Virus record (IMG/VR): IMGVR_UViG_3300032123_000052 | Coordinates: 1 to 64,000 of that record | Length of the DNA: 64,000 nt | From: a virus | Lineage: Duplodnaviria > Caudoviricetes | Strand: one strand, 5' to 3' | Shown: positions 1-27,598 of the stretch, piece by piece | Layout of the letters: each line of letters opens with the position of its first letter | Numbering within the stretch: position 1 is the stretch's first letter | Translations under genes and position numbers: made by a program | The notes under the pieces: model-generated | Told to the model about the DNA's origin: nothing | The model's input: only the letters and a program-made list of their open reading frames with translations | The model's database searches: none

Positions 1-270
1 GGCCATACAATTTCAGGCACAATTAGTGGGTGTAGTTATGGAATTTATTATGGTTTCGGCTATACAATTTCAGGCACAATTAGTGGGTGTAGTTATGGAA
101 TTTATTATGGTTCCGGCCATACAATTTCAGGCACAATTAGTGGGTGTAGTTATGGAATTTATTATGGTTCCGGCCATACAATTTCAGGCACAATTAGTGG
201 GTGTAGTTATGGAATTCGTTACGGTTCCGGCTATACAATTTCAGGCACAATTAGTGGGTGTAGTTATAGT
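1..270 (+). repeat. 57-bp coding tandem repeat, about 4.7 near-identical copies visible
   Basis: Unit ggccatacaatttcaggcacaattagtgggtgtagttatggaatttattatggtt(t/c)c starts at 1, 58, 115, 172 and 229, with only a few substitutions. Confidence 0.97.
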
Positions 271-2980: not shown

Positions 2981-3592
2981 GTGTCTAAAGCTGATTCAAG
3001 GGAATATTTTTTACCCCATACTTCATTTAGACAGGTTGCTCAGATGTCATCTTATGAAATTGAAGTTTTAGGTACTAAATATCCAGAAGCAAGAAAAACG
3101 TCTGTTGGTATACCTGTATTTGGTATGATGTTTGCTTTAAATTCAGAACTTAAAAAGTATCAAAATAAGTTTGGTACTAATATTAATACAGATATAGATG
3201 AAGCTAAGTTAGAAAGTGAGTTAAAATATGAAAATATTTTGTCTAAGAGAATTCTTAATCAAACTAAATTAGGAATGTTAATTCTTAAAGAAGAGGCTTC
3301 TGACAGAGTTAAGAAAATTCTTAGGGCTGTAATGAATACGCTTAAAGTAGGTATTAAACATTCTTCTGCTCGTATTATGGGTATGGGAATTAAAAATCAA
3401 CGTGATATTGAAACTGTACTTACAGAAGAGTGGAATGATGCAATTGGTGAACTTGAAGAGGGTTCTAAAGTAATTTCTTGGGAATATGATGGATCAGCCG
3501 CATTACTTCAAACTAAATTAGTTGATTTAGAAAAAATCGATCCTGAGTTTGTAGATGTAGTGAAAGCGAGACAACGTGAAAACCAAGGTTAA
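2981..3592 (+). CDS. Probable terminase small subunit (Nu1-like position)
   Basis: GTG start with RBS ggagg, immediately upstream of and overlapping TerL. The size and helical C-terminal region fit; assignment is mainly positional. Confidence 0.55.
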   Translation: MSKADSREYFLPHTSFRQVAQMSSYEIEVLGTKYPEARKTSVGIPVFGMMFALNSELKKYQNKFGTNINTDIDEAKLESELKYENILSKRILNQTKLGMLILKEEASDRVKKILRAVMNTLKVGIKHSSARIMGMGIKNQRDIETVLTEEWNDAIGELEEGSKVISWEYDGSAALLQTKLVDLEKIDPEFVDVVKARQRENQG

Positions 3593-5441: not shown

Positions 5442-5698
5442 TTATGACAGAATTTACTACATGGGCGGTTGAATTACTCCGCTGGAAAAATGCATTAGCC
5501 AATAGAGATATAGATTCTTTTTGGGTAATGTCAACTGAAAATTCACGAGAGATGCATACTACATATACTCGTTTAGATAATATTTCTAAATTTACTGAAT
5601 GGTTAGAAAATAAAAAGGACATGGAGTCATTAAGAAGTGATGAGGGTAAAGGCGGAGATAGTGTATCTATTTTACAATTTGTAGCAGGAGGTAATTAA
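5435..5698 (+). CDS. Putative head-tail joining (gpW-like) protein
   Basis: 87 aa between TerL and the portal, the slot gpW occupies in lambda-like modules. Confidence 0.5.
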   Translation: MVIMTEFTTWAVELLRWKNALANRDIDSFWVMSTENSREMHTTYTRLDNISKFTEWLENKKDMESLRSDEGKGGDSVSILQFVAGGN

Positions 5699-7254
5699 TG
5701 CCTTCAAGTTATGATATAATTAATGATTCACCATATTTTAAAAATTGGTTTGATGGGTTACATGAACTAGCTCCAGATACAGAATTAGAAGAAGATCAAA
5801 CTTTAATTGGTCTAAGGAAAACAAGTCTCAAGCTTATTAAAAATAATTTTATAGCATCAGCAGCTCAGTTAGCCTATATCAATACGGTATTGGGGGGTAA
5901 GATAACTCTTGATGTGTTAAGTACGAGTAAATCTTTTGAAAAAGAAGTTAAAAGAGTGTTTGGTGAAACAATGAATGGCTTAGATATTAATAGACAATAT
6001 TCTTTAACTCAGATAGCTGAACAAATTGTTGCTGCTGCTTTTGCACATGGGGATATTTTAATTAATCTTCCCAGAGATAAAAGACACCTTGGAAAAATTA
6101 AAACATATGTTGAATTGGTTGAAGCGTCTCGAATTAAAACACCTCCAAAATACAAGAATAATAATTTGGTTAAAGAGGGTGTTCATTATTATGAGAGTGG
6201 TAGAATAAAGGGATATTGGGTAATTAAGCGTCAAAAACAACAAGAGAAAATAAATTACTATACTGCTCAAGACAGTGATTTTGATTTTTTTCCCGTATAC
6301 AAAAAAGATAATGATATTACACGTAGGGTTTGTTGGTTATTTAAAGCACCATTGAATTTAAGACCAAATCAATCTAGGGGTATACCTGTATTGACTGGGA
6401 TTATGGAGCTTTTAAGATATATTGATCAGTATCTTGAAGCTGTATTGGTAGGTTCAAGGGTAGCTGCTTGTTTTGCTGCTTTTGTTAAATCTAATAACCC
6501 TGTTCAAGCTCGTAAATCTTTAGTTGAGTCAGATAATGATGCTAGTGTTTATGTTAAAGGTAAAAGAATACATAAATTACAGCCTGGTACAATTGCTAGT
6601 ATGAAGAATACCGATGACATTGTTTTTGCGACTCCAAATAGACCTTCTGATAATTTCGATACTTTTGTTTTAAGGTTATTTAAATCTGTAGCTATGAATT
6701 TACGTATTCCTTATGAACAAATGTTTCTTGATTTGAGTCAAACAAATTATTCTTCTTGGAGAGGCGGTAGTTTAGAGACCGAAAGAAATGTAAATCGTTG
6801 GGAAAGGGATTTAGAAGATTGTTTAAGATGGATAGTTATGACTTTTCTACAAGAAGCATTAGTCACTCGTGAATTAAAAGGTACGTTAAAAGGAATGACT
6901 TTGCAAATAACCTTTCCCGTATATAAAACTCTTGACGAAGAGAAAACATCAAGAGCAAGACGACTTAATCTTGATAATGGTTCTACTAGTCAACATAGAG
7001 AACAAGCAGGATTGGGTAAAAATTATGAACAACTTCAAGAAGAATTAACCAAGGAGGCTTTAGATAATGTTGAAAAGGAGGCAAAAATACTAATAAGAAA
7101 GAAAGAATTAGAAGAAGAACATGACATAATTTTTCCAGATCAAGTTAAAGAGGATAGAGATACTTCTGGTTCCCGTAGAGAAGGTGAAGAAAAAGAATCA
7201 GATTTAGATGATGAAGATGCTAAAGAGAGGAGAAAGGATGATGACAATTGGTAA
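5698..7254 (+). CDS. Portal protein, lambda family
   Basis: Motifs VELVEASRI, RPNQSRGIP, LQPG, DLSQTNYSSWRGGSLE; position after TerL/gpW. Confidence 0.92.
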   Translation: MPSSYDIINDSPYFKNWFDGLHELAPDTELEEDQTLIGLRKTSLKLIKNNFIASAAQLAYINTVLGGKITLDVLSTSKSFEKEVKRVFGETMNGLDINRQYSLTQIAEQIVAAAFAHGDILINLPRDKRHLGKIKTYVELVEASRIKTPPKYKNNNLVKEGVHYYESGRIKGYWVIKRQKQQEKINYYTAQDSDFDFFPVYKKDNDITRRVCWLFKAPLNLRPNQSRGIPVLTGIMELLRYIDQYLEAVLVGSRVAACFAAFVKSNNPVQARKSLVESDNDASVYVKGKRIHKLQPGTIASMKNTDDIVFATPNRPSDNFDTFVLRLFKSVAMNLRIPYEQMFLDLSQTNYSSWRGGSLETERNVNRWERDLEDCLRWIVMTFLQEALVTRELKGTLKGMTLQITFPVYKTLDEEKTSRARRLNLDNGSTSQHREQAGLGKNYEQLQEELTKEALDNVEKEAKILIRKKELEEEHDIIFPDQVKEDRDTSGSRREGEEKESDLDDEDAKERRKDDDNW

Positions 7255-8056
7255 TAGTTTTTTAATTCAACATTTTATGAATTCTGTATGGTTAATACAT
7301 CCTGAAAAACTTAAAATTATGTCTGAAGTTTTAGTTAAAAAAGCTATTGGGGATTTAAATGGGTCACTTAACCTACTTCAATTAGAACCAAAAGAACAAA
7401 AACCTGCTTATGTTCAAAGGATAGGAGATGTTGCGGTTCTTAATATTGTGGGAGTATTGGTTCCTAAAGCAAGTTGGTTGGATACCATGTGTGGTTTTGT
7501 TTCTACTATTGAACTACAAAATCAATTCGAAACTCTGGTAGCTGATCCTACTATTAAACGTATTGTATTATATTTTGATAGTCCTGGAGGATCAGGTATG
7601 GCAATACCTGAATTTGCTAATGTTGTACATGAGGCACGCAATGAAAAAGAAATAGTTGCTTTTACAGATTGTTTTATGTGCTCAGCAGCATATTGGATTG
7701 GTGCAGCAGCAGATCAACTTGTTGTTACTCCTTCTTCCATTATAGGTTCTATAGGAACCTATATGTCTCTTATTAAAGAAAAACCAGAGACTAAAGAGTA
7801 TGATATACATATTATTCAAGCTGGGAGTAATAAATTATTTGGTAGTCCAAGTACTCCTTTGACAAGTGATGAAATTAACTATTTTCAAGAAAAAGTCAAT
7901 CAGAATTATGAAACTTTTACTACTGCTATTTCGCAGTATAGAAATGTTATTCAAGAGGAAGTTAAAAATACTAAAGCTAGTTATTATACATCAGGTGAAG
8001 ATGCACCTGAATGGTTGTATGATGTTTTAGCTGATTCTCATTATGTATTATCTTAA
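7241..8056 (+). CDS. Prohead maturation protease, S49 (SppA-like) family
   Basis: FDSPGGSG, MCSAAYWIG, GSIG and AGSNK motifs. The start is more likely 7238/7241 (RBS gaggag) than the track's 7208. Confidence 0.9.
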   Translation: MTIGNSFLIQHFMNSVWLIHPEKLKIMSEVLVKKAIGDLNGSLNLLQLEPKEQKPAYVQRIGDVAVLNIVGVLVPKASWLDTMCGFVSTIELQNQFETLVADPTIKRIVLYFDSPGGSGMAIPEFANVVHEARNEKEIVAFTDCFMCSAAYWIGAAADQLVVTPSSIIGSIGTYMSLIKEKPETKEYDIHIIQAGSNKLFGSPSTPLTSDEINYFQEKVNQNYETFTTAISQYRNVIQEEVKNTKASYYTSGEDAPEWLYDVLADSHYVLS

Positions 8057-9566: not shown

Positions 9567-10535
9567 ATGGGTAGATATATTGGTACTGCTTTACAACATG
9601 ATGTAAAAGAACTCATTGAAGAATCACCATTGGACTTGGTTGAGTATCAAGCCAATACTGTTCTTCCTGAAAAGACAGTAACTGAAAAATCTGGAGAAAT
9701 ACCAGTAATGAAGACAAGTGTGGGAATGAAACAACTTGATCTTAAACGTGCTCCTCGTTCAACATTTAAACGTGCTGAATGGGTATGGGGAAGTGCAAAT
9801 TTTGTTACATATGAATATGGGTATGAAGAACCTATTGACAATGTTGAAAAATTGGAAAACGCAGATATTTTTAATGAAGAAGTTGTTGTTGCTAATATAG
9901 CAAGAAGTCAACTTATGTTAGCACGTGAGAAACGTGTGGCTGATGCTGTTTTTAGTGCTACTACTTTTGTAGGTGCTAAAAATACTACAGTCATTACTAA
10001 TGAATGGAGTGATGCTACCAACGCTGATCCCTATGCAGATATTACTAATGTGCACGATATTATGTTTGCGAAAAATGGTATACCTAGAGCAAGATGTGAA
10101 TTACTTATTAATGAAAAAGTATTTCGTAATGTAATGGGTAGTGATAAAATACAAAGTAATTTAAAGTATACTATACCTATTGATAAGATGTCTGAACAGG
10201 AGAAGAAAAATTTACTTGCCCAGTTTTTAGGTATAAAACAAGTAAATATTGCAACTTCATTTGCGGATTCTACTGCTATAGGTGTTGAAAATGCTGAGTT
10301 TTCTCGCCTTTGGAGTGATGAATACGCAATGTTTTATTTTCCTTGTCCTAATGTTGACTCTTGGAGGGTTAAAGGACTTGGTCGTCAACCAGTTTATGCA
10401 AAATTTTCTCCTACTTATATTATAGAAGATTATCCTGAACCACAATCTGATTCTCTGGTTGTTAGGGCAAGGGAATATAGGGGAGAATTTATTAATACTA
10501 TGTATGGAGTATTAATGTCCAATATGACCTCCTAA
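9567..10535 (+). CDS. Major capsid protein (lambda gpE-like, HK97 fold)
   Basis: 322 aa, RBS ggagg. Motifs LAREKRVAD, EWSDATNADPYADI and WSDEYA, plus canonical position. Confidence 0.85.
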   Translation: MGRYIGTALQHDVKELIEESPLDLVEYQANTVLPEKTVTEKSGEIPVMKTSVGMKQLDLKRAPRSTFKRAEWVWGSANFVTYEYGYEEPIDNVEKLENADIFNEEVVVANIARSQLMLAREKRVADAVFSATTFVGAKNTTVITNEWSDATNADPYADITNVHDIMFAKNGIPRARCELLINEKVFRNVMGSDKIQSNLKYTIPIDKMSEQEKKNLLAQFLGIKQVNIATSFADSTAIGVENAEFSRLWSDEYAMFYFPCPNVDSWRVKGLGRQPVYAKFSPTYIIEDYPEPQSDSLVVRAREYRGEFINTMYGVLMSNMTS

Positions 10536-13865: not shown

Positions 13866-14233
13866 ACTGGTGTGATGGTACTATAGATTTTAATTGGTCA
13901 CCATCTTTATGTCTGTTATGCCAGTCTGTTAAGACATGTAAATTCTGTAAATATGTCATAGACCAAGAACTTGATTTACGTAGTTTAGCATTGTATACCC
14001 CTTTAGCTGAACTTTGGTATATTTTTCAGACTATCTTAGTTATTAGTCCTACTACTGAAATTGGATTTACTATGATGGGAGCTGATGTATTTTTAAAAGG
14101 ATATGATTTTGTACTGGGTCAAGTAACCCATCGTGAATTTTGGAGAGTTATGGTATATTTTCTTAATAGGACAAATGAAAAGTTTAGGGAAAGAAGAAAA
14201 TCTAAACTTGCTCAACTGGGAAGAAGGAAATAA
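13859..14233 (+). CDS. Frameshift extension (gpT part of the gpGT fusion)
   Basis: The -1 frame reads LIDWCDGTIDFNWSPSLCLLCQSVKTCKFCKYVIDQELDLRSLALYTPLAELW... and is in frame with track ORF 13991..14233. Its stop overlaps the TMP start. Confidence 0.72.
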   Translation, partial: LIDWCDGTIDFNWSPSLCLLCQSVKTCKFCKYVIDQELDLRSLALYTPLAELWYIFQTILVISPTTEIGFTMMGADVFLKGYDFVLGQVTHREFWRVMVYFLNRTNEKFRERRKSKLAQLGRRK

Positions 14234-17175
14234 TGGCAAGACCTTTAGTGTTAAAATTTACAGTCGATGATAAAGGGAATGTAGTCATTGACAAAATGAG
14301 TTCCAATGTCAATAAGCTAAATAAAAATACGAAGGGATTAGGGAAAACTCTAACCCACGTATTTGCTTCTGCTGTTATGCTCACAGCTCTTAATAAATTT
14401 AGAATGGGTATAGCTTCAGCAAATAAAGAAGTATTTGAATTTAATAAAACTTTTAAACAGATCGAAGGTATTACAGGAACTAGTGGTAAGTCCTTAGATG
14501 CACTAAAGAAAAAGACTCTTGATGTAAGTAATGTTACAGAACATACTTCTACTGCTATTGCAAAAGCAGTTTTAAGTATATCTAAGATGGGATTTACACT
14601 AGAGCAATCTTTAGCTGTTGTTCCTCATGTAGCTGATTTAGCCACTTCTTCAATTGTTGAATTAGATGAGGCTACAAGAGTAGCTGTTCAGACTATGAAA
14701 TCATATCAAATGGGCGCATCTGATATGGAACACATAGTTAATACTATTCAAGGAACAGTTAGTAAAACAGCTATAAATTTCGATGAATATGCTCAATCCA
14801 TGAAATTTGTAGCTCCTATTGGTCAAGCATTAAATATAACTCTTGAAGAAACATCTGCTATGATTGGTAAGCTAGGTGATGTAGGTATTAAGGGTTCATT
14901 GGCAGGTACCACTCTTAAAAATATGTTTTTAAATATAATGAAACCTAGTGATGATGTTAGGGTTATACTTAAAACTTTGAATGTTGAAGGTAAAGGATTT
15001 AATGAAATACTTAAAGCCATGAACAAAGCAGGTATTCCTATATCTTCATTTTTAGAAACATTTAATAAAAGAGCGATTGCTGGGTCACTTGCACTAGCGG
15101 AAATGACAGGGGCTACTGATGAATTAAAAAAAGCATTAGAAATGGAAGATGTTAAGGTTAAAGATGTCGCTGATATAATTCGTGATGCATGGATACCTCA
15201 ATTGTTAATGCTAAGAAATACATTTGTCAATGTATTTGTCACAATGGGAAAAATTCTCGATGATTCTGATTTAGGAATAGGTATTGGAGGCATAACTAAA
15301 AAATTTATAGAGCTTCAAGGATGGCTTGAAAAAAATCCGGGAGCTGTTATTGGAGTAGCTAAAGAAATAGCCAGTCTTACTATGAATATAACTAAATTAG
15401 CTGCTGGAGCATTTGAATTTGCTATTAAAAATGGGGATATGTTATTTAAGTTATTTAAAGTTATGTTGACTTTAAACATAGCTAATAGAATAGGAATCGG
15501 TTATACAAGAGCTTTTACGAGATTTGATAATGCTGTAGGTAATGCTGGAAAAAGTATGGCTATATCTTTACCTATTTTACAGGGAATGGCAATAGCCATA
15601 CAACTTGCATCTGCTTGGACAGATAAATGGGTTGAAAATCTTGAAAGAGTGCAAAAAGTAACAGGTGATATAACCATAAAAGGTCTTGAACATAAACTTG
15701 AAGCTTTACAAGCATTCCAAAAAAGAATGACTGATCTTACGGAAATTAAGTTTAAAAATAAAATTACTTGGGTAGGCAAAGGACTTGCTGAAATTGAAAG
15801 AGTATTAGAGAATGATGTAGAATTATTAAATAGGATTTCTAGGACCATAGGAAAAGAGTTTGGTATTGATCCTAATTTTTTTAAGGGATTTACAAAAATT
15901 GATATGGTGATTTCTGGCTTAGAGAAAAGAATAACTAGGATGAAAAAGATAGCAACGGAAGAAACAAAAAAACCAAAAGTAATTGATCCATTTAATTTAG
16001 AAGATTTATTGGGTACAGATGGTGGCAAAGGAGCTAAAGATCCTGCTGAGGAATATGCTGATGCTTTTATAAAGTATATGGAATTAAGACTAAAAGGAAA
16101 AAGTGAAGTAATAGCTAGAGCTTTAGCCGGATTTTCTTTGGATGCTGCTAAATTGTTGGGAGCAGGAGAAACTATAGGAGGATTAACTGGCGGACAAATT
16201 GGAGGTTTGGGTAAATTAACTCCGGGATTTGAAGCTAGTTTAACTGGACAAGAAATTCCTGGTTTACCTTTACACATGGCTGACATACCCAATGTTTCTG
16301 AACAAGCTGAAAATGCTATAAAATCGGCATCTGTAGAAGTTGAAATTTTAAATACCCAAAAAGAACGTATTAAGGTAATAGATGAATTAATTAAAAAATA
16401 TGAAGAAGAGTTTGAAGCTATTGAAGAACTTGAAGCTAGGCAATTAGAGGCCTTAGAAGCTGAAAGAGCTATTGGTGAAGAGCGTAAAGAATTTTGGCTT
16501 GATCAAGCCGAAGGATTTATGTCAGCAGCTCAAATGGCTACTAGTATGGTTCAAATGATTCAAGATGCTCAATTTAACAAACTTAAATCTCATCATCAAG
16601 AACAAATGAAAATGTTTGATGAGAGAGCGAAACGTGAAATAGATAATGTTCAGGGCAATGCTTTTAAACAAGCTATTATTGCTCGTAAAATGGCTAAAGA
16701 GAGACAAAAACTTGAAGCAGAACAATCAAAATTAGAAAGAGAACAGAAAGAAAAACAAAGAAGATGGGCAATGATTGAAGTTGTTATTAATACAGCAGTA
16801 GGTATAACTCAAGCTCTTAGGGGTATGGTTCCTCCTGCTAGTATAGTTATGGCGGCTATAGTTGGGGCAATGGGGTTTGCCCAACTTGGTCTTATTTCTT
16901 CCCAGGAAAGTTTCAAGGTGGGTGGTTATACTGGTTCAGGTGACCCATCGGATGTTGCTGGTTATGTACATAAAAAAGAATTTGTTATTAAAGATAGAGA
17001 TGTTAGAGACCTAGGGGGAGCTACAGGAGTACAACAGATGATTGATGATAGACTTGAAAATACAGGTACTTCTAATAGAGTTGTTTATATGAATATTGAT
17101 ACATTTATTGGAACAGAAGAATTTAAACGAGAGCTTTTTGTTGATATACAAAAGGAGGCTCAGAGATGGGAATAA
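14233..17175 (+). CDS. Tape measure protein (TP901-type core)
   Basis: 980 aa, helical. TP901-core motifs (LEETSAMIGKLGDVGIKGSLAGTTLKN), hydrophobic patches and C-terminal GGYTG/GYVHKKEFV. Confidence 0.92.
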   Translation: MARPLVLKFTVDDKGNVVIDKMSSNVNKLNKNTKGLGKTLTHVFASAVMLTALNKFRMGIASANKEVFEFNKTFKQIEGITGTSGKSLDALKKKTLDVSNVTEHTSTAIAKAVLSISKMGFTLEQSLAVVPHVADLATSSIVELDEATRVAVQTMKSYQMGASDMEHIVNTIQGTVSKTAINFDEYAQSMKFVAPIGQALNITLEETSAMIGKLGDVGIKGSLAGTTLKNMFLNIMKPSDDVRVILKTLNVEGKGFNEILKAMNKAGIPISSFLETFNKRAIAGSLALAEMTGATDELKKALEMEDVKVKDVADIIRDAWIPQLLMLRNTFVNVFVTMGKILDDSDLGIGIGGITKKFIELQGWLEKNPGAVIGVAKEIASLTMNITKLAAGAFEFAIKNGDMLFKLFKVMLTLNIANRIGIGYTRAFTRFDNAVGNAGKSMAISLPILQGMAIAIQLASAWTDKWVENLERVQKVTGDITIKGLEHKLEALQAFQKRMTDLTEIKFKNKITWVGKGLAEIERVLENDVELLNRISRTIGKEFGIDPNFFKGFTKIDMVISGLEKRITRMKKIATEETKKPKVIDPFNLEDLLGTDGGKGAKDPAEEYADAFIKYMELRLKGKSEVIARALAGFSLDAAKLLGAGETIGGLTGGQIGGLGKLTPGFEASLTGQEIPGLPLHMADIPNVSEQAENAIKSASVEVEILNTQKERIKVIDELIKKYEEEFEAIEELEARQLEALEAERAIGEERKEFWLDQAEGFMSAAQMATSMVQMIQDAQFNKLKSHHQEQMKMFDERAKREIDNVQGNAFKQAIIARKMAKERQKLEAEQSKLEREQKEKQRRWAMIEVVINTAVGITQALRGMVPPASIVMAAIVGAMGFAQLGLISSQESFKVGGYTGSGDPSDVAGYVHKKEFVIKDRDVRDLGGATGVQQMIDDRLENTGTSNRVVYMNIDTFIGTEEFKRELFVDIQKEAQRWE

Positions 17176-17592: not shown

Positions 17593-20500
17593 ATGTTTGA
17601 ATCAAGTACAAATGTTACTACTTCAGTTGCAATATATCCTAATTCAGGAGATGATTGGGATATACTTAGTCCTTTTCCTGCTGAGATACTTAAAAAAGTA
17701 GTTATAGTGACAGGTATATTCTCTACTACTCCTTCGAAGGGAGATACCTGTACAGATATTGATACCAATAGTTTTACATATTTAAGAATTGTCACAGGAA
17801 CCAATAAACATGTTTTTGAGGCAAATGATAGTATAGCTCCTACATTACAGACAGGGAATTTAACTAATATATCTCCTGGTTGGGTATTTACTTTTACTGC
17901 ACATGATGGATTAGAAAATGAAAAGGGTTTTGTATTTTCTAATTCCCTAATTAATAATTATGGGTTACTTCACCTACTACCAAAAAGATTAAATGATGTG
18001 GGCAGAATTAACAATGAAGTTAATTTTTTAGCCAAGACAAATTTACAAAGTAAAACTATACCAGTAAGTCAAGGTATAGGTGGAATGTCCAAATTAAAAG
18101 ATTTTAATTTTACTATTACTAAGGATTATTTGGGTACTAATCCTATGGATATTAATGATATTATAAATACCTATGGCAGAACCATTTCTTTATTTATTTC
18201 TGAGTCCACAGGAATTGAAGATCCTGATAATGTAACATATTCAAAAATAAAATTCAAGGGTAAAATATTTAAAGCAGGTAGGAAAAATAATGAAATTATA
18301 TTTATTGTTAAAGGCTTACTTAATTCAGCTAATCCTCTTGTAGGTGGAGCTGTAGTCACACAAAGTGATAATTCACAAGAAAATGAAGCTATATTATTTG
18401 GAGATTCTGGAGGCGCTTATATCCCAATAAGTAAAAAAGAAGATGATAATGGAATAGTTACCTTGCAATTTAATCAAGATGATAAATTTATTATTAAAAG
18501 TTTACATGTTAAGAGCGGTACAGATTCTGAACCTGTGTGGTTAGATATTGATACCCCCTACAATATTGTAGATAACAAGATTATATTTAATGAGATTGAG
18601 TATTCTGAAATATTTCTAAGAGAGGTTTTGGATGCACCCATTAATCAAATTGACAGACTTGTTATTGAATCATATTATATAGTAGGTATAAATTTTGAGG
18701 GAGATATGACACCTATTACTTTATCTCCAGGGGATAAAGTAATGTGTAAATATATTAATCCATCTTATAATCTTCAAGATACCCTTAATCGTATGACTTA
18801 TATAAAAATGGAAACTGTTTTAGATGAGGACATATATTTTTTTAAATGTGGTTGGGAGTTTGTTTTTGGGTATTTAAGAGGACATATAGATAATTACACA
18901 AATGATATTACAGACAGAAAAACCTATTTAAATTTACCTCATGCTGGAGGTTTAACTGTTAGGGCTATAAGTTATATTGTTACATATAGATTAAATCCAC
19001 TTGAAAAAGAAATAGATGCTTTACCCATAAGATTTCCAGATGGTGTAGATGTAAATTGGCAAGCTCAGGAGTTAAAAGATGTATTACAGATGTGGGGCAC
19101 AGCAGATAGAGTATTTCAATCTATTCCAAAAGATCCATTAATAATACAGATTGAAGATGAAAAAATGTTAGTGATATATACAGAAAAAGATACAGGTTAC
19201 CCCTCTAGTGAACAATGTCCAGATCAACCTGAGTATTGTTATGTATGGGTAGTAAGGGGATGGTCAAATACCGATAAAGTTAGTCATAGTAATAATTTAC
19301 CTGTGACAATTTATAATTCCCTAGAACAAAAAATATTAGTTAATTTTGTAAGACCATTACAAAATTTAAATTCGGTTACTCCTTCAGGGGATTGGACTTT
19401 CGGTACTGATTTTGACAAGTTTTTAAAAAATGTACAGGATATGCAAGTTTGGAATTTTGCAGGTGGGGGTGTATTAACTAGTGAACATGATCCTTTAGCT
19501 TGGCTAGCATTAGATTTTAATTTACCAGATCTAACAGGCGATTTAGAAAATCTTTGGTTAATTGGAAAAGCTTCTGTTGATATTGATCCATATGATATAA
19601 ATCAAGGTAACCCAGAAGGGGATGCTTTTATAAGTATTGCTTTAAATACCATTGAAGAGGGGAATGAAACAAGTACTATTGAACAACGACAGAAAAGACG
19701 TAGAATATATGGACAATATTTACATGATGACATATCTGAACAAGATAAATATAAAATTGCTTCTTATCGTTATGATGGGTCACTTGAACAAGTACAAGGG
19801 GAATATATTTTTTCTTTAAAGACTGTTACTGCTTTTGCTAGGTATCATAATGCATATATACCCGGTGCTGGTTATAGTGTTAAGCAGCAAACCAATGCTT
19901 ATAATATAAGCGACTACGATGATTTAAAAGAAACTTCTATATTTTTCTGTTTAAATAGTAACACATATGAGAATAAAAAAACTATGTTTACTTTTAATAG
20001 ACCATCATTAAAAGTACAACTTAAAATGGATATTTTATCTGCTGATATTTATGCTAAAGTTATTCCTAAAAAGATTTTTGATAACTCTAGTGATGAATTT
20101 ACAATAGGTACTAATGGTAAAATCTGTTGGCATCCCTATAACTATTTCCAAACGATTGGAGATTTAATTAATCCAGATTTAAAAAATATGATCTCGGTTT
20201 CTGATGATGATAATTTAGGATTTACAAATATAGCCGTATTTTCCAATGCTAAGTTTGGTTTTGTTACACCTAATCCAAATACAGATTATCCAGGTTTTTT
20301 AGTTAAAGATCTAATTAGAAAAAATGGGGTAGGTAAAATTTACCCTACTCAAAATTTGAAAGAAGATTATATTCTGCCTTCTATTGATGTCGGAAATTAT
20401 GTTAGAACAACAGGTTTTCCTGATGGGTTATCTGATGCAGGCAAAATACTTCTTGAAAATGGTAGCTCTTATTTATGGGTAGATCAGGATAATAATAAAG

Positions 20501-21384
20501 TTAAAATAGTTACTAAAGTAATATTGGATGAGAGTAATCCTGTAAGTATTATACAAGAGTTACTTACTACATATTTTAATGATGTGACATTAAATACTTC
20601 GTCTTTTACAGTAGCCACAGAAAAAAGACTTTCTTGGGATGCTCGTTTAATGGTAACAGAGGAAAAAACATTGGTGTCATTAATTGATATGCTTGCTAAA
20701 GAACATGGATTAATTGTATATGAAAATAATGAGGGTGAAGTAACTATTGTAACTCTTGATCCTCCTGTAACAAATTCAGTTTCTAGTAATATTGATGATA
20801 CTTTACTAATATACAAGGATGAGAATAAAGAAAGTCTCTTAGATTTTAAAGAAGATTTCACAGATTTAAACTACCTTATTACTGAACTAGATGTTTATTA
20901 TGATTTTGTTAATAGTAAATATCAAGGGTATATTAAATCATTAGATTTAAATAATCAAGATGATTTTGCTATATCTAAACAATTTACAGATAACGATATT
21001 AAAATCAAATTACAATTACAAACTATATTTAATAAAGGTACTGTTAATAAAAGTGCAGAAATTAAAATGATTTATCATCAAGTGCCTACTAGGATTATAA
21101 AAGGCAAAACTACTTTAGGTGCATCAGATTATGATATTGGTGGATGGGTTACTTGTAGTAGTTCTAAAATTGCCGAAGTTAGTGGTAAAATTTATTTGGT
21201 TTTAAGTAAAAAAGAACAAGTACCCTTTCCTGGTAAAAGAAATAATATTGAATTTGGTTTATTTGAATTTGATTGGGATAACCTTGTATTAAGAATACAA
21301 GAAGTACCTCATCAAACAGAAATTGATAATTATGATGAAGTGATAGATACAATAGATGACATTGATGAAGTACCAAATGCATAA
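17593..21384 (+). CDS. Large tail tip/hub (Tal-like) protein
   Basis: 1263 aa after TMP/Dit. Hub-like segments (KIKFKGKIF...IIFIVKG; LVSLIDMLAKEHGLIVYENNEGEVTI). Confidence 0.55.
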   Translation: MFESSTNVTTSVAIYPNSGDDWDILSPFPAEILKKVVIVTGIFSTTPSKGDTCTDIDTNSFTYLRIVTGTNKHVFEANDSIAPTLQTGNLTNISPGWVFTFTAHDGLENEKGFVFSNSLINNYGLLHLLPKRLNDVGRINNEVNFLAKTNLQSKTIPVSQGIGGMSKLKDFNFTITKDYLGTNPMDINDIINTYGRTISLFISESTGIEDPDNVTYSKIKFKGKIFKAGRKNNEIIFIVKGLLNSANPLVGGAVVTQSDNSQENEAILFGDSGGAYIPISKKEDDNGIVTLQFNQDDKFIIKSLHVKSGTDSEPVWLDIDTPYNIVDNKIIFNEIEYSEIFLREVLDAPINQIDRLVIESYYIVGINFEGDMTPITLSPGDKVMCKYINPSYNLQDTLNRMTYIKMETVLDEDIYFFKCGWEFVFGYLRGHIDNYTNDITDRKTYLNLPHAGGLTVRAISYIVTYRLNPLEKEIDALPIRFPDGVDVNWQAQELKDVLQMWGTADRVFQSIPKDPLIIQIEDEKMLVIYTEKDTGYPSSEQCPDQPEYCYVWVVRGWSNTDKVSHSNNLPVTIYNSLEQKILVNFVRPLQNLNSVTPSGDWTFGTDFDKFLKNVQDMQVWNFAGGGVLTSEHDPLAWLALDFNLPDLTGDLENLWLIGKASVDIDPYDINQGNPEGDAFISIALNTIEEGNETSTIEQRQKRRRIYGQYLHDDISEQDKYKIASYRYDGSLEQVQGEYIFSLKTVTAFARYHNAYIPGAGYSVKQQTNAYNISDYDDLKETSIFFCLNSNTYENKKTMFTFNRPSLKVQLKMDILSADIYAKVIPKKIFDNSSDEFTIGTNGKICWHPYNYFQTIGDLINPDLKNMISVSDDDNLGFTNIAVFSNAKFGFVTPNPNTDYPGFLVKDLIRKNGVGKIYPTQNLKEDYILPSIDVGNYVRTTGFPDGLSDAGKILLENGSSYLWVDQDNNKVKIVTKVILDESNPVSIIQELLTTYFNDVTLNTSSFTVATEKRLSWDARLMVTEEKTLVSLIDMLAKEHGLIVYENNEGEVTIVTLDPPVTNSVSSNIDDTLLIYKDENKESLLDFKEDFTDLNYLITELDVYYDFVNSKYQGYIKSLDLNNQDDFAISKQFTDNDIKIKLQLQTIFNKGTVNKSAEIKMIYHQVPTRIIKGKTTLGASDYDIGGWVTCSSSKIAEVSGKIYLVLSKKEQVPFPGKRNNIEFGLFEFDWDNLVLRIQEVPHQTEIDNYDEVIDTIDDIDEVPNA

Positions 21385-21395
21385 AGGAGACTGAA

Positions 21396-23570
21396 ATGCC
21401 AAATAGAGAAATAACTTTTTATTACAATACTCTTACTTATATGTTAGCGAATCTTAAAAATAAGCAAAGAGCTTTTACTACTGAGGGTGCTGACTCAAAT
21501 AATGAAACTGTTTGGGGTAGCGGTAAAGGTACTAAAGGTTGGCTTGCTTATAAAGATTTGGATGGAGATTTACAAGTACCTGCAATACAAAAATATTATG
21601 ATGTTTCTCTTTCTGCATGGGTAAGAAGAGGGAATGTATTTGCAGATGTTGAGATAGATGAAATTTATTCCAATATAGGTTTTAAAGACCAGTATTTAGC
21701 TGATGATATACCCATTAGTGAGAGTGGTGTAACAGCCTTAGCAGGTGGATTCTCAGCTACGAGTATTATTGGCGCACTGAATGAACTTAAGAGTGGTATA
21801 ACTGCTGCTGATACTTATTGGGCAGCTCAATCTGGAACTTCTACTAGGCCTAAATCTCCTTTTGTTTGGATATATGCTTTAAATGGTTTTCAAGATCAAT
21901 ATTGTGCAGGTATACCTTTAGCAGAATCCGGTGATGGGTCACTTGATGGAGGATTTAGCGCAGTGAGTATTATTGGGGCATTAAATGAAGTGTATGGTAG
22001 TATGCACGCATTCAAGACAATCACAGGTATTACAAATGATGTAGTTGCAGATTCTGTAGCTGATACTCTTAGCCTTGCAACCGGAAATAATATACTTGAA
22101 ATAGTTGGTACGACAGCAACAGATACTATTACATTCACAGTAGATGAGACTAATATTAATCATGACAATCTATCCAATTTTGTAGCGAATAAGCACATAG
22201 ATCACTCTACGGTATCAATTTCAAGTGGCGGAATTCTTTCAGGGGGAGGCACTATAGTAGCGAATTGTACAATATCTCTCGCTAATGGCGATGTAGATCA
22301 TGACCAGACACTTAATTTTACATCTACAGAGCACTTTACAATGTTAAATGAGAATGATCTTGGAAGTAATTCAGATACTCAAGCTGCTACTCAACAATCG
22401 ATTAAAGCTTACGTAGATGCTGCTATCGGTGCTGAAAACCTGTGGAATAGAGCAGCTACAACGTTATCACCTCATACCGCTGGAGATAACGTTACTACTA
22501 CTGGGGTGATAACAGGCAACTCTTTCATCACAGCTTCAAATATTGGTATTGCTGCTGATGCAGATTTGATTCAACTGACCGCTGCTAATACTGTAGTTTT
22601 CAATGCTACTAACGTTGGTATAGACAATGTAGCTCCCGGAAGACTCCTCACAGTCGGAGGTGCTCACGATGATCCAACAATCTCCTTGAATCGGTCAACT
22701 ATTACGTGGACTGCTGATCAAAAAACGGCGTTCGGGTGCGTAGATGGAGAGGGTGGAAATTTAAAACTATATAGCAATACTACTGGAGGGATTTATCATA
22801 AATATATTTCAAAAGCCGCAGCATCTGGTTTCAACGCGCTGTTTCAGGCATTTTCTGAACATGATCTAACAACTCAAGGTTCATTTCTGTTCGTAGGTTT
22901 CAAGCATGACGGTTCTGGTAGTTTTACCACTCATGGGGCATCTGCGAAAATATTTGAAGTGAGAAATTATGCCAATACATTAATGACTATCAAGGGTAAT
23001 GCTAATACTGGCATAGACAACGCTCTTCCTTCCAGATTACTGACAGTCGGAGGTGCTCACGATGATCCTACTATCTCACTTAATAGGTCAACCATAACTT
23101 GGACTGCAGACCAAAAATCTGCTTTTGGATGTGTTGATGGAGAGGCTGGAAATTTTATGCTTCGCAGTGGTCTTGTTGGAGGATTGGATATTACTTCATA
23201 TTCAAAATCTGTCAGTGGTGTGGCTATAGCGTTTAATGCGTGTTCTGAAAACGATCTGACTGCATACGGCTCATTTATATTTAGAGCGTACAAGCATGAT
23301 GGTTCTGGGAGTTTAACCGCTCATGGAAATAGTGCTAAGATATTTGAAATTAGAAATGATTACAATATATTAATGACTATTTTGGGTGATGGTAATATGG
23401 CTATTAATGGAAATGCAACATTAGCCAGTAATAAAAATATTGTAACACAGGGAACAGGCGCCCTGTATAGCACAGGAGTTGGCCTTGGAGAAACTGAGAG
23501 GAATGTTGCCGATCCTTATCCCAGATTTGACAAAGATACCGGAGAATTGTATGGAGTGACACCAAGTTAA
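21396..23570 (+). CDS. Tail fibre protein, mosaic
   Basis: Fibre shaft motifs (SIIGALNEL twice, HDNLSNFVANKHIDHS, ATQQSIKAYVD) and a duplicated ~131-aa distal module. Confidence 0.75.
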   Translation: MPNREITFYYNTLTYMLANLKNKQRAFTTEGADSNNETVWGSGKGTKGWLAYKDLDGDLQVPAIQKYYDVSLSAWVRRGNVFADVEIDEIYSNIGFKDQYLADDIPISESGVTALAGGFSATSIIGALNELKSGITAADTYWAAQSGTSTRPKSPFVWIYALNGFQDQYCAGIPLAESGDGSLDGGFSAVSIIGALNEVYGSMHAFKTITGITNDVVADSVADTLSLATGNNILEIVGTTATDTITFTVDETNINHDNLSNFVANKHIDHSTVSISSGGILSGGGTIVANCTISLANGDVDHDQTLNFTSTEHFTMLNENDLGSNSDTQAATQQSIKAYVDAAIGAENLWNRAATTLSPHTAGDNVTTTGVITGNSFITASNIGIAADADLIQLTAANTVVFNATNVGIDNVAPGRLLTVGGAHDDPTISLNRSTITWTADQKTAFGCVDGEGGNLKLYSNTTGGIYHKYISKAAASGFNALFQAFSEHDLTTQGSFLFVGFKHDGSGSFTTHGASAKIFEVRNYANTLMTIKGNANTGIDNALPSRLLTVGGAHDDPTISLNRSTITWTADQKSAFGCVDGEAGNFMLRSGLVGGLDITSYSKSVSGVAIAFNACSENDLTAYGSFIFRAYKHDGSGSLTAHGNSAKIFEIRNDYNILMTILGDGNMAINGNATLASNKNIVTQGTGALYSTGVGLGETERNVADPYPRFDKDTGELYGVTPS
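22617..23402 (+). repeat. Diverged tandem duplication (393-bp period) in the fibre gene
   Basis: GIDN..P.RLLTVGGAHDDPTISLNRSTITWTADQK.AFGCVDGE...KHDGSGS.T.HG.SAKIFE.RN begins at 22617 and again at 23010. Confidence 0.92.
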
Positions 23571-23699
23571 AAATTAAACAGGCGTTTATTAATGGCGAAT
23601 GAATATAAAGACGAATTGCGAGTATTGGCAACACCTTAGAAAAGCTTTATAATAAATTATAAATAAGTTTATTAACTTTCAACAAACAGGAGGAGGTGT

Positions 23700-24215
23700 A
23701 TGAAAACGACTGATGTTGTACGTCTGTACAATGAGATTTGTGTTTTGCAGGGTATTAAAAAGACACTCTGGGAATTTAATCACATGATGATTGAGGTTAA
23801 AAAAGTGATTAGGTCAGCAGCTGATGATTACAGCGAGAACATTATGGCAATTCAGGAAGAGATCACCGCGCTTCGACTTGAATACTGCCAAAAAGATGAC
23901 GAAGGCAAAGCGGTTGTGGCACGCCGTTATAGCAAAGATACTGATGGGAAGCTTACCATCACTGAAGAGCAATATGTTGGCCTTGTCAGGGGGGAGCAGC
24001 CAAATTTCGACACCAGGTTCAAAGAGCTTAACGATGCCGCTAAGGAGCTTGGGGAGGCAATAGTGATATACGGCGAAGATAAAAGGCCGATAGAAGAGAG
24101 ACTTTCTGAAGTCAAACCTGCTAAACGTAGCCAGGTTCCAGCAGACTGGGATGGGAATCGTGAAGAAATTTTCTGGGATTTTATCGAAGAAAATAAGAAA
24201 ATTACCGCAGAATAG
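23700..24215 (+). CDS. Hypothetical protein, possibly a fibre-associated chaperone (DUF1617-like)
   Basis: Strong RBS aggaggtg. Helical, with an EYCQKDDEGKAV motif seen in genes that follow fibre genes. Confidence 0.5.
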   Translation: MKTTDVVRLYNEICVLQGIKKTLWEFNHMMIEVKKVIRSAADDYSENIMAIQEEITALRLEYCQKDDEGKAVVARRYSKDTDGKLTITEEQYVGLVRGEQPNFDTRFKELNDAAKELGEAIVIYGEDKRPIEERLSEVKPAKRSQVPADWDGNREEIFWDFIEENKKITAE

Positions 24216-24952: not shown

Positions 24953-27598
24953 ATGACAATTGTAATTAATAATCTTGAAACAAATCGACCCGAATCAGAT
25001 CTTACAAATGCAACTGTGGTAAACAGTTCATTTGAAGCGGCGGCGCCGAACAATGTTCCCGGGCCTTTTTATTCTGATGAGTACAACAAATTTAATTTCG
25101 TATATGACGATTTTGGATTTGTAAATCCAAGCCGCGGATCAGCATATCAGTCAGCAAATGGATATCCGACCGGAATAGGTGGAGCGTCTCGATATGGGGT
25201 TGGGGCATTCTACTTCTTTGTTCCGGTTCCAAATCCGGAGATACAGCCACGAGCTACTGAGATATTATGCGAAGAGGCCACAACACCAGGCAGGGTGTTT
25301 TGGGAGTATCTTTCTACATTCTGGAACTATATGGATACTGCCGACAGAGAGTCGTTTGAGGCTTTTTGGTATGGGTTAACCCAAGCTGGTGCAGACTTAG
25401 TTAAGAGGGCAAGAAGATTGCTTGGGGCAACTGCTCCAGAAAATGCATGGATATGTGTGCTCGAGGATTATTATGATATCCTTATTGGCCCGTTGCACTC
25501 AAAACCAATTGATCTTGATCCAACTATTAAATCCCCGAATTATACCATAAGGCCGATTGAAGTAAAACTTTTTGAACCGGCTTATGACTCTGAAACAAAT
25601 CCTGTTTACCGAGATATGTTTCGAATTTCGGCACCAGATTATTATAGAGTACGCAAAGTTGGCCTTAGCAATTATGTTGTTGTTCAGGTGAAAAGAGAAG
25701 GCGTCACCGATCGGTATTTCAAATTAAATAACCTTTTGTCATCAGAAGAGAAGTATGATCGGTCAGCATTTGCAGAGATTAATGAAACAATCAACTTTGA
25801 AGACGATCTTGATGTTGGTAGAATTGGCATTACAGCAAATGATTATACTGAGGATGTGTCTGAATACTATGTTCTCGTTTCTGCTGATGATGGTAGTGGG
25901 ACCAGCGTTGTGTGGACGGCAAACAGTCTTCATATAAAAGTTGACCGTATTGCCGCTGAAACAATTGATCAAATACTCACCATTGTTAACACGCCACCTG
26001 CCGCATGGGCTGTTGTCACAAACCGATCACCAAAAGGGCTTGATAACTTTCCGATAACAACAGAAGCTGGAGTAATGCCGGATGATGCGATAAAGTTTAA
26101 AAACCTTCCACAGTATATTTGCCGTGAAGAGAATGAAGGTAGGTATTATTTACCTGAAGGCAAGAAGTGGGAATGGTTTGATGGATATACAGCGCTGGAT
26201 GGTGATGTTGGCAACCCCGCTTTTGGTGAATGGGTTGATTCATTTTCATCTTTTAATTACATGATAGAAGTGCAAGGCGATCTGTCTTATATAGGAGATG
26301 AGTCATTTACTATATATCTGACAACTGGCAGAACATATGATGTTCTTTCACATATAAATATACTTCCATCACTTCAAAACTTTCTTGATGAAAAATTAGG
26401 AGTTCCACTCTTTGATGGGCAGGACTATCGATTCTATAACAATACGGTGGAATTTTTTAATGATATATTTACTAATGGGCAGGCCATCCCTAATACCTAT
26501 CTTTATTGCCCAAAAGCATCTGCAATTGAGCACATGCTTTTCGAAATCTACGGAACGATCGTGAATGTTCCAAGATGGCAGGATTATAATTACACCAATA
26601 TATCCGGGAAGGCTGGAATAAACTCTCTTCTTAAATCGCTACAGAGCGTCAGCAATAGACAGGATTATGAAAGAGCTTTAAATGTCTATTATGGATTGCC
26701 GGTATCTCCAGAGCGATCAGACGTTCTAGGCTTATACGAATCATATGGATATAAAGTAATAGGAGTCGCTAGTAACAATGTTACTTTGGAGATTCCTGAG
26801 AACGAGGAGCTTCATCAATTTATACAATCAGGCGGCAGATTCCTTATTGAAGGAAAGACTGAAGTTAAGATATCAATAGTTTCTGATAGACCAAATGGAA
26901 TAGTGACGCTTGAAAACGCATCCTCTGTTGATGTAAATGATATTTTTTATGTAAAATTGAACAATAAATTTTTCATAAAGAGCTTTTATTCCGAAGATCT
27001 GTCAACCTCTACCCCTGGATATATAGATGTTTATATACCTGAGGGGGCTGGTGCAATTCAGCATGTTGTTGATGTTATGCAGACACTTTCTGGTGGAGAA
27101 CAATATCCAGAAATGCTTATATATGGAACCGAAAAGCTTAATCATAACTACAATGGCGTATACCATGTAACAAATGCTACTGAGGCTGGGGGAATAGTGC
27201 GGCTCACTGTTTATGAAAAGGAGAATGTTGATACGACAGTCTATAATGATTTCATCGGCGAAACTACTGAAAATATCAGTGCTGGTTTTGCCCACTTCTC
27301 ATGGCCGACACATAAGTTCCTTAATTTGTATCTTGAGACTCAAAAATATTTTAAAGCGTATATTGATTCACCGATCGATACTATTTATGACGCCGGAGAT
27401 GTCTTAAATAAATACGATATAATTACACGCAATGTATCGGTCGTTGATAAAGCAATTTTCCCAGGATGGGTAGGTTTCGATCATTTCAGAAGATATAACG
27501 GAATTAATCTTGAGTCTGATATTCTTGAGATTACTTATATCGTCCCTGGAGCCACTTTTGGTAAGTATTTTCCGAGTGCGTGTATGGCACTCGTATAG
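24953..27598 (+). CDS. Large structural protein, baseplate-wedge-like (tentative)
   Basis: 881-aa ORF. WEYLSTFW..F..FW and ERALNVYYGLPV segments recall wedge-type proteins of large phages (from memory, unverified). Confidence 0.45.
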   Translation: MTIVINNLETNRPESDLTNATVVNSSFEAAAPNNVPGPFYSDEYNKFNFVYDDFGFVNPSRGSAYQSANGYPTGIGGASRYGVGAFYFFVPVPNPEIQPRATEILCEEATTPGRVFWEYLSTFWNYMDTADRESFEAFWYGLTQAGADLVKRARRLLGATAPENAWICVLEDYYDILIGPLHSKPIDLDPTIKSPNYTIRPIEVKLFEPAYDSETNPVYRDMFRISAPDYYRVRKVGLSNYVVVQVKREGVTDRYFKLNNLLSSEEKYDRSAFAEINETINFEDDLDVGRIGITANDYTEDVSEYYVLVSADDGSGTSVVWTANSLHIKVDRIAAETIDQILTIVNTPPAAWAVVTNRSPKGLDNFPITTEAGVMPDDAIKFKNLPQYICREENEGRYYLPEGKKWEWFDGYTALDGDVGNPAFGEWVDSFSSFNYMIEVQGDLSYIGDESFTIYLTTGRTYDVLSHINILPSLQNFLDEKLGVPLFDGQDYRFYNNTVEFFNDIFTNGQAIPNTYLYCPKASAIEHMLFEIYGTIVNVPRWQDYNYTNISGKAGINSLLKSLQSVSNRQDYERALNVYYGLPVSPERSDVLGLYESYGYKVIGVASNNVTLEIPENEELHQFIQSGGRFLIEGKTEVKISIVSDRPNGIVTLENASSVDVNDIFYVKLNNKFFIKSFYSEDLSTSTPGYIDVYIPEGAGAIQHVVDVMQTLSGGEQYPEMLIYGTEKLNHNYNGVYHVTNATEAGGIVRLTVYEKENVDTTVYNDFIGETTENISAGFAHFSWPTHKFLNLYLETQKYFKAYIDSPIDTIYDAGDVLNKYDIITRNVSVVDKAIFPGWVGFDHFRRYNGINLESDILEITYIVPGATFGKYFPSACMALV

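Follow-up and report, generated by a model that had tools for sequence, protein, structure and literature searches.

A 208-kb virus record as a very probable assembly chimera of two phages meeting in a tail-fibre gene

The tail fibres of phages P2, Mu and the T-even group are mosaic, combining a conserved N-terminal domain that anchors the fibre to the virion with a distal receptor-binding module that is exchanged horizontally. In Alteromonas phages A5 and V22, mosaic tail fibres have been described in which the anchor is kept and the distal module exchanged (PMC10579305). Virome assembly is documented to err by joining viruses that occur together, through regions in which they are alike, into chimeric contigs (PMC5610896). 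The window analysed here, positions 1 to 64,000 of IMG/VR record IMGVR_UViG_3300032123_000052, belongs to a 208,085-bp contig that is very probably an inter-genome "lollipop" assembly chimera of two phages: A, a smaller sipho-like phage on the left, and B, a jumbo phage on the right.

As in the documented chimeras (PMC5610896), two viruses that occur together and are highly similar in one region would have been joined; the junction and both ends being exact k-length repeats, and each half having its own relatives and hallmark genes, are counted as further likenesses. Unlike those chimeras, one partner here forms a full circle, so that the contig resembles a "complete, linear 208-kb" jumbo phage. 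As in the A5 and V22 mosaics, the fibre of A has a family-specific N-terminal region of 200 residues (47–90% identical), a composition change at its boundary, and a distal module homologous to that of an unrelated, morphologically different phage (66–90% amino acid identity to B); unlike them, its true end would be hidden, with the assembly merging into B. The closest counterparts of B are circular or DTR-closed jumbo phages belonging to the same uncultured sediment clade, such as G002 (186,450 bp, 144-nt DTR, CheckV 100%), with which B is colinear throughout and nearly equal in size. In our record, unlike G002, the closing overlap joins the end to an internal site (208,031–208,085 matching 22,821–22,875) instead of to the start, owing to the 22.8 kb of foreign DNA ahead of it.

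Two compositional blocks with separate virion genes

An earlier note, made by eye from the sequence, had described a compositional switch inside the fibre gene, and this switch proved real, sliding composition, codon and tetranucleotide profiles all separating the two blocks. Block A (1–22 kb) has a GC content of 0.33 (range 0.30–0.35), a CpG o/e of 0.43 (range 0.30–0.59) and a GC3 of 0.163±0.020, while block B, the remainder of the 208,085-bp contig, has a GC content of 0.39, a CpG o/e of 0.86 and a GC3 of 0.352±0.056. Codon third positions are T in 47.9% and C in 4.9% of cases in A (GC3 range 0.116–0.187, n=17 genes), against 36.3% and 16.1% in B (range 0.204–0.529, n=151 genes), and the GC3 ranges of the two gene sets are disjoint (Mann–Whitney U=0, p=1.5e-11). 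The low-30s GC and T-ending codons that the note had seen on the left are thereby borne out, as is the rise in GC, C/G-ending codons and CpG on the right: profiles over 22–208 kb stay at a GC of about 0.39 and a CpG o/e of about 0.9, not only to the end of the window but to the end of the contig. In tetranucleotide space (Euclidean distance ×1000), the two A windows are at a distance of 35 from the centroid of B, whereas B windows lie 14.2±4.5 from their own centroid, with a maximum of 26.6. Ordinary within-genome heterogeneity was considered as the cause of the step and rejected, since B windows never come near A values. The switch falls at about 22,070, or about 22,072 by the third-order Markov log-likelihood ratio of an A model against a B model, which is within the fibre ORF at 21,396–23,570 (forward strand).

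Upstream of the fibre, 1–21,395 (forward strand) holds the structural half of the smaller sipho-like phage, colinear gene by gene with relatives of 30–44 kb. The head–tail module that had been claimed for the left block is indeed present, with TerL (3576–5441), portal (5698–7254), protease (7208–8056), major head protein (9567–10,535) and tape measure (14,233–17,175), followed by a distal tail protein of 1263 aa (17,593–21,384). The contig starts in a 57-nt tandem repeat of 4.7 copies (1–267, forward strand). Its first 55 nt are identical to 115–169 and the match breaks at base 56; hence the 5′ end is, as read from these repeats, an assembly-graph break rather than a genome end. This left end lies inside an A-type gene as well as the tandem repeat, and relatives carry further A-type genes upstream.

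The claim that the right block holds a second, unrelated portal-like gene was likewise upheld. This gene (47,859–49,946, forward strand) encodes a protein of 695 aa that was identified by a Foldseek fold search, in which all 40 matches at E≤1e-3 are phage portals, the model having a pLDDT of 60.7 and the matches TM scores of 0.2–0.37. Additionally, a second TerL lies outside the window at 93,863–95,533 and was found with phrog_675 and Pfam. The contig thus contains two copies of each of two single-copy hallmarks, TerL and portal, and the A and B members of each pair are unrelated by BLASTP (E = 0.036 and 0.21 for the two comparisons). Profiles phrog_15 and phrog_21 matched only the terminase and portal of A, with no match in B. 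A 734-aa ORF at 86,269–88,473, a portal candidate by position, gave no match in PHROGs, Pfam, PDB or Atlas, and the portal family alignment used as a profile against PDB gave none either. No tRNA was found within the window, and a megablast search of 10–34 kb against GenBank phages returned no match.

The fibre gene and the repeated 55-mer

The fibre ORF is composed of segments of different affinity. The N-terminal anchor domain of the A-type fibre (21,396–22,028, forward strand; residues 1 to about 200–211) still has an A-like composition, with 6.6% C at third positions and a CpG o/e of 0.35, and residues 1 to about 199–211 are 47–90% identical in relatives; past this boundary, the A-type fibre relatives show no similarity. 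The distal segment that follows (22,029–22,820, forward strand) is B-like in composition (GC 0.40, CpG o/e 0.83) and homologous to the fibre repeats of B, yet distinct from B's own sequence: amino acid identity to these repeats is 53% from residue 324, ranging over 53–90% for residues 324–693, and nucleotide identity is about 75% over 22,616–22,742. The composition step sits at the end of the N-terminal domain, and therefore probably reflects a real fibre-module exchange of the ordinary kind in the left phage, with 22,029–22,820 as the module that A would have acquired naturally.

Identity to the 3′ end of the contig rises sharply thereafter. The stretch 22,743–22,875 (forward strand) differs from 207,953–208,085 at only 2 of 133 nt (22,765 and 22,820; 98.5% identity), and within it 22,821–22,875 (forward strand) is an exact 55-mer equal to the last 55 nt of the contig (208,031–208,085) in matching codon phase. 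The base just 5′ of the 55-mer differs (A at 22,820, G at 208,030), and, the 5′ tandem repeat aside, the contig has no other exact repeat of at least 45 nt. Chance homology as the source of the terminal 55-mer was discarded, as the repeat is the sole long exact one, is preceded by a mismatch and is matched by a 55-nt repeat at the other end. The composition step at about 22,070 lies 750 nt upstream of the assembly junction at 22,821–22,875, so that composition alone cannot place the join.

Downstream of the 55-mer, 22,876–23,570 (forward strand) continues the 393-nt (131-aa) tandem units of B and forms the tip that completes B's fibre. The 3′ end of the contig lies in an open ORF of 1,288–1,294 aa, and closing B at the shared 55-mer, which joins 204,221–208,085 to 22,876–23,570, gives a circle of 185,210 bp and an unbroken fibre of 1,519 aa with zero stops. 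Judged from sequence, the jumbo phage is a circularly closed genome of 185.2 kb whose fibre gene spans the contig end. Phage A may itself carry an identical or collapsed copy of the tip at 22,876–23,570. No database protein spans both halves of the fibre, the best matches covering at most 33% of the query; searches of IMG/VR and of JGI metagenomes gave no fused-fibre locus and no continuation of A past the fibre, and a search of JGI metagenome contigs for other carriers of the fibre tip gave no match.

Relatives of the two blocks

Unambiguous jumbo-phage DNA, colinear with relatives, starts with the span 23,648–50,000 (forward strand). It opens with genes of 171, 231 and 881 aa, which, together with later ones, directly follow fibre and baseplate genes in the relatives; the baseplate genes corresponding to this order sit at 198.6–204.7 kb of the present contig. 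Two relatives share the gene order 692 aa, 147 aa, a 1004-aa Baseplate_J-like protein, fibre, 167 aa, 232 aa and 881 aa, and this order links our 198.6–204.7 kb directly to 23.65 kb. G002 is colinear with B around the full circle, the junction included, and aligns to 62% of B, in blocks of 68–79% nucleotide identity, and to 0 nt of A; its unique length of 186,306 bp compares with 185,210 bp predicted for the circle of B. Both G001 and G002, the relatives of B, lack A DNA and the A portal.

Relatives of A were reached only via alignment of the fibre N-domain, since single-protein IMG/VR locus searches with the 1263-aa tail protein, the portal and the whole fibre of A gave no match. Three contigs of 30–44 kb (47–61% complete) are colinear with A from position 868 to the fibre N-domain, and their TerL is 60% identical to that of A. 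At least 13 large ORFs that lie past the fibre in these relatives are missing from our contig, and one relative, G004, has low-GC replication genes on the minus strand; as far as these incomplete contigs extend, no B genes stand beside the fibre and the 881-aa protein of B is lacking. In two relatives of A, GC and CpG rise at the fibre C-terminus and then fall to a GC of 0.27 and a CpG o/e of 0.36 downstream; in our contig, unlike these, composition never falls back downstream of the fibre. Relatives carrying both blocks together, which the earlier note had named as evidence against two genomes, are absent among those found.

Origin of the join and its consequences

Directly observed are the composition step, the exact k-length repeats at both ends, the in-frame fibre closure, the synteny in the relatives of either phage and the duplicate hallmark genes. 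In the chimera reading, the stick would be 1–22,820, with the packaging, head and tail genes and the N-terminal fibre part of the AT-rich, CpG-depleted sipho-like phage A, and the loop would be 22,821–208,030, the whole circular or circularly permuted genome (185,210 bp) of jumbo phage B. The two phages would have in common a near-identical fibre stretch that is visible from 22,743, and in a k=55 de Bruijn graph their paths would merge at the vertex 22,821–22,875. The assembler would have begun in A, entered the cycle of B at this vertex, completed one lap and halted on re-meeting it, which would explain why precisely these 55 bases close the contig. A would have gained its 22,029–22,820 module, which we infer to be A's own, from B-like phages by natural exchange, and with it the homology that misled the assembler. 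The assembler type and k=55 are themselves deduced from the repeat lengths; G002, with its DTR of 144 nt, came from a different pipeline. The earlier note had left two options, namely that shared fibre sequence caused a misassembly or that the phage is truly recombinant or nested. The misassembly reading is strongly supported by the 55-mer loop-back, the 185-kb circle and the separate relatives, and recombination is probably right in the limited form of a fibre-module exchange.

It is improbable that the join is real in at least part of the population, the packaging, head and tail module of A having recombined into the 185-kb jumbo phage, or been captured by it, via the shared fibre tip, so that a natural hybrid would bear two virion modules unrelated to each other. 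A natural insertion or nested element would place an A piece of at least 22 kb within B just past B's fibre, between two copies of the fibre tip, with a true circle larger than 208 kb. Such an element would yield an identical contig and terminal 55-mer, and fibre homology could mediate the recombination. However, A is missing at this site and everywhere else in the two B relatives examined, one of which is the complete DTR genome, and the left end of A is an arbitrary break in the 57-nt tandem repeat, which would call for an even larger insert. It would enlarge the genome by at least 12%, although the complete relative is 186 kb, and would double the terminase, portal, protease, capsid and tail genes with ones of unrelated type, and the disjoint GC3 ranges would demand a very recent event. 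Carrier DNA does not lie on both sides of A, since B's fibre runs directly into the shared 55-mer and not into A, and no integrase turned up when genes near the junction were scanned against PHROGs. We consider a nested element highly improbable.

We think it just as improbable that, in the sampled community, homologous recombination of the fibre genes in a cell co-infected by A and B produced a hybrid DNA, A head and tail followed by B, that was probably a dead end and was faithfully assembled. Fibre modules do pass between unrelated phages (PMC10579305), and 98.5% fibre identity over 133 nt after about 75% upstream resembles a recombination tract and implies that A and B have a host in common. 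Nevertheless, the adjacency of B's fibre to the 55-mer is also present in the contig, which means that B exists as an intact circle; relatives are lacking for a hybrid equipped with two packaging and head systems, and a join at the k-mer level requires no real molecule. Extremely unlikely is a chimera with two joins, in which 22,07x–22,820 would belong to a B-like strain or species as a third genome, and the step at 22,07x would be a second assembly junction. The B-like composition of 22,029–22,820, homologous but not identical to B's fibre, would fit this scheme; however, the ORF is continuous, exact repeats give no sign of a second junction, the step falls where the conserved anchor stops, at the very point at which natural relatives part from one another, and the fibre C-termini of the two A relatives described above rise likewise in GC and CpG.

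A weaker reading, much likelier than a real join, is that phage A, sipho-like and of roughly 65–70 kb, and phage B, of 185 kb and baseplate-bearing, truly share a near-identical receptor-binding fibre tip. If this is true, the shared tip would be evidence that exchange across families took place very recently and that both phages infect one host in marine sediment. The identity of 98.5% over at least 133 nt suggests such a shared host and a recent exchange of receptor-binding modules, a known phenomenon.

The main value of the chimera reading, in which none of the genes at 1–22.8 kb (terminase, portal, capsid and tape measure among them) belongs to the jumbo phage, is in data hygiene, as the public IMG/VR record is presented as a complete linear 208-kb virus. 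Mixing the genes of A and B would make gene counts, inferences from duplicated virion modules, composition-based host prediction and taxonomy based on the left terminase wrong. The IMG/VR and CheckV entry for the record gives a 100%-complete linear genome and carries no flag.

Composition of the record and of its fibre gene

The source record in IMG/VR is a contig of 208,085 bp, classed by CheckV as 'linear' and 100% complete, of which the window constitutes the first 64 kb. The earlier note had described a GC switch in the fibre gene that lasts to the window end, and this is confirmed: GC is 0.30–0.35 left of 22 kb (block A, of a sipho-like phage A) and approximately 0.39 from there to the contig end (block B, of a jumbo phage B), while the CpG observed/expected ratio (o/e) rises from 0.30–0.59 to approximately 0.9. 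With third-order Markov models trained on 1–21 kb versus right-hand coding DNA, the log-likelihood ratio peaks at 22,072, inside the fibre ORF (21,396–23,570). The bias at codon third positions, previously seen by eye, also holds; T-ending codons account for 47.9% on the left versus 36.3% on the right, C-ending codons for 4.9% versus 16.1%, and per-gene GC3 is 0.163±0.020 (n=17) versus 0.352±0.056 (n=151), with disjoint ranges (p=1.5e-11). Both left 11-kb windows lie 35 tetranucleotide units from the right-hand centroid, beyond the maximum of 26.6 reached by the right-hand windows themselves (14±4.5). The composition difference is real and well outside the spread within one genome.

Contig ends and the repeated 55-mer

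Positions 22,821–22,875 of the fibre ORF are an exact copy, in the same codon phase, of the last 55 nt of the contig (208,031–208,085). The preceding base is A at 22,820 and G at 208,030, and upstream of 22,820 a single further mismatch in 78 nt is followed by approximately 75% identity. The first 55 nt of the contig recur exactly at 115–169, inside a 57-nt tandem repeat, and the match ends at base 56; apart from this 5′ tandem repeat, the 208 kb contain no exact repeat of at least 45 nt other than the fibre pair. Both contig ends stop one 55-mer past a mismatch, from which we infer an assembler working on a de Bruijn graph with k=55. Moreover, a 1,288-aa ORF starting at 204,221 is still open at the contig end, and its 393-nt tandem units run on into 22,876–23,570, such that 204,221–208,085 joined to 22,876–23,570 reads 1,519 aa without a stop. 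Given the repeated 55-mer and the stop-free fibre across it, block B is predicted to close into a 185,210-bp circle.

The 393-nt (131-aa) array of the B fibre begins at 207,036, continues up to the contig end and resumes at 22,876. The same fibre (204,221–208,085; L046:16,136–20,000) carries a 120-nt (40-aa) unit that is repeated 6.7 times at 204,859–205,669 and resembles beta-propeller blades, and the fibre ORF of the window has a weak Pfam match to PD40.

Relatives, hallmark genes and the origin of the contig

The 881-aa protein of 24,953–27,598 has homologues of 79–81% identity in two IMG/VR contigs, in both of which the homologues of the 23.65-kb genes are preceded by DNA that matches contig 198.6–206.4 kb and not block A. 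In one of them (L004), successive ORFs of 692, 147 and 1004 aa are followed by the fibre (672 aa) and then by ORFs of 167, 232 and 881 aa, and the other (L003) is similar. A parent record, G002 (186,450 bp, 144-nt direct terminal repeat, 100% completeness), is colinear with B round the whole circle, the predicted closure included, and its alignment covers 62% of B at 68–79% identity and 0 nt of A.

Relatives of A were found by aligning the fibre N-domain (residues 1 to 199–211), which is conserved at 47–90% identity in many proteins that diverge completely beyond it. These IMG/VR contigs of 30–44 kb, 47–61% complete, have the genes of block A in the same order, one for one, between position 868 and the fibre N-domain (TerL, the large terminase, 60% identical), and no B genes occur in these fragments; none of the relatives found for either block carries both. 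Past the fibre, they have at least 13 large ORFs, mostly on the minus strand, that lack a counterpart anywhere in the contig. Of an A-type phage, the contig thus contains the structural half only, and its A part begins at an arbitrary break. Phage A's own continuation was not found among IMG/VR and JGI metagenome contigs.

The head-tail module attributed to the left block is present, with TerL (3576–5441), portal (5698–7254) and tape measure (14,233–17,175), and with prohead protease, major head protein and large distal tail proteins within 1–21.4 kb. Block B encodes its own TerL (93,863–95,533; phrog_675, E=3e-55; Pfam GpA_ATPase and Terminase_6N) and a Baseplate_J-like protein (201,194–204,202). 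A second, unrelated portal-like gene on the right is upheld with moderate confidence: the 695-aa protein of 47,859–49,946, a core protein in a large clade, has portal clusters as its language-model look-alikes, and all 40 of 40 PDB matches of its AlphaFold model (pLDDT 60.7) at E<=1e-3 are phage portals, at TM of 0.2–0.37. BLASTP detected no relationship between the two TerLs, nor between the A portal and the B portal-like protein. The latter gene lies 44 kb from the B TerL; a 734-aa ORF (86,269–88,473) has no match in PHROGs, Pfam, PDB or Atlas, and a transposase gene lies inside the jumbo phage (contig 124,685–125,797; L041:14,685–15,797; phrog_506, E=1e-41).

Based on the end 55-mer, the B circle and the relatives of each block, the contig is very probably an assembly chimera of phages A and B, the misassembly through common fibre sequence that had been one of two readings offered at the outset. 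In all likelihood, the jumbo phage would measure 185.2 kb and block A would be no part of its genome. If A had inserted naturally into B, with duplicated fibre tips at both sides, the graph would be the same; however, the insert must begin mid-gene, enlarge the genome by 12% or more and duplicate every virion hallmark gene by an unrelated version, and the event must be very recent, as composition shows no amelioration, while the insert is missing from both B relatives. This makes insertion quite improbable, and a real recombinant subpopulation in the sample is considered equally so.

The step at approximately 22,070 precedes the join by 750 nt and falls where the conserved N-terminal anchor ends (nt 21,990–22,030). 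The intervening 22,029–22,820 has a B-like composition and shows homology to the B fibre, yet is not B's own sequence, with 53% aa identity from residue 324, then 75% and finally 98.5% nt identity. In the A relatives L006 and L007, GC and CpG also rise in the fibre C-terminus and then return to GC 0.27 and CpG o/e 0.36; after the contig's fibre, there is no return to A-like values. The simplest account of the offset is that the phage A fibre would be a natural mosaic, its distal module having been swapped with that of B-like phages, as is well known of fibre genes (PMC10579305), and that the resulting near-identity may have led the assembler to cross from A into B; the erroneous joining of viruses that co-exist and have regions in common has been documented for assemblies (PMC5610896). 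A third genome as the source of 22.07–22.82 kb is unnecessary, and is the least probable of the alternatives. The right limit of the stretch shared by A and B is not visible in the contig, and B-specific synteny is back by 23,648.

Further features of the A-type phages

Two A-type relatives from different samples, G004 and G005 (L036, L037), both begin at precisely the same distance from TerL, 4,528 nt upstream of it, which may reflect either a physical end that these genomes share or a break at the same place in both assemblies. Two small to medium proteins are isolated genes common to A-type relatives and the jumbo phage, groups otherwise unrelated (L005:14,715–15,068 (−) with contig 132,959–133,327, and L058:15,302–15,913 (−) with contig 183,031–183,744; 39–50% identical). 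Upstream of A's small terminase region, a 431-aa ORF (868–2163, +) contains approximately 16 copies of a 60-nt (20-aa) unit at 984–1954, and periodicities of a higher order lie at 123, 183 and 243 nt; the units are Gly/Thr/Ser-rich with a 'SLTGTGTVKGNG'-like motif, and identity to the G004 counterpart is only 28%. CpG o/e is 0.43 in the A block (1–21,395), 0.26–0.36 in L006 and L007 and 0.86 in the jumbo phage; such strong depletion in A-type phages is suggestive of another host, or of selection acting against restriction/modification targets that contain CpG.
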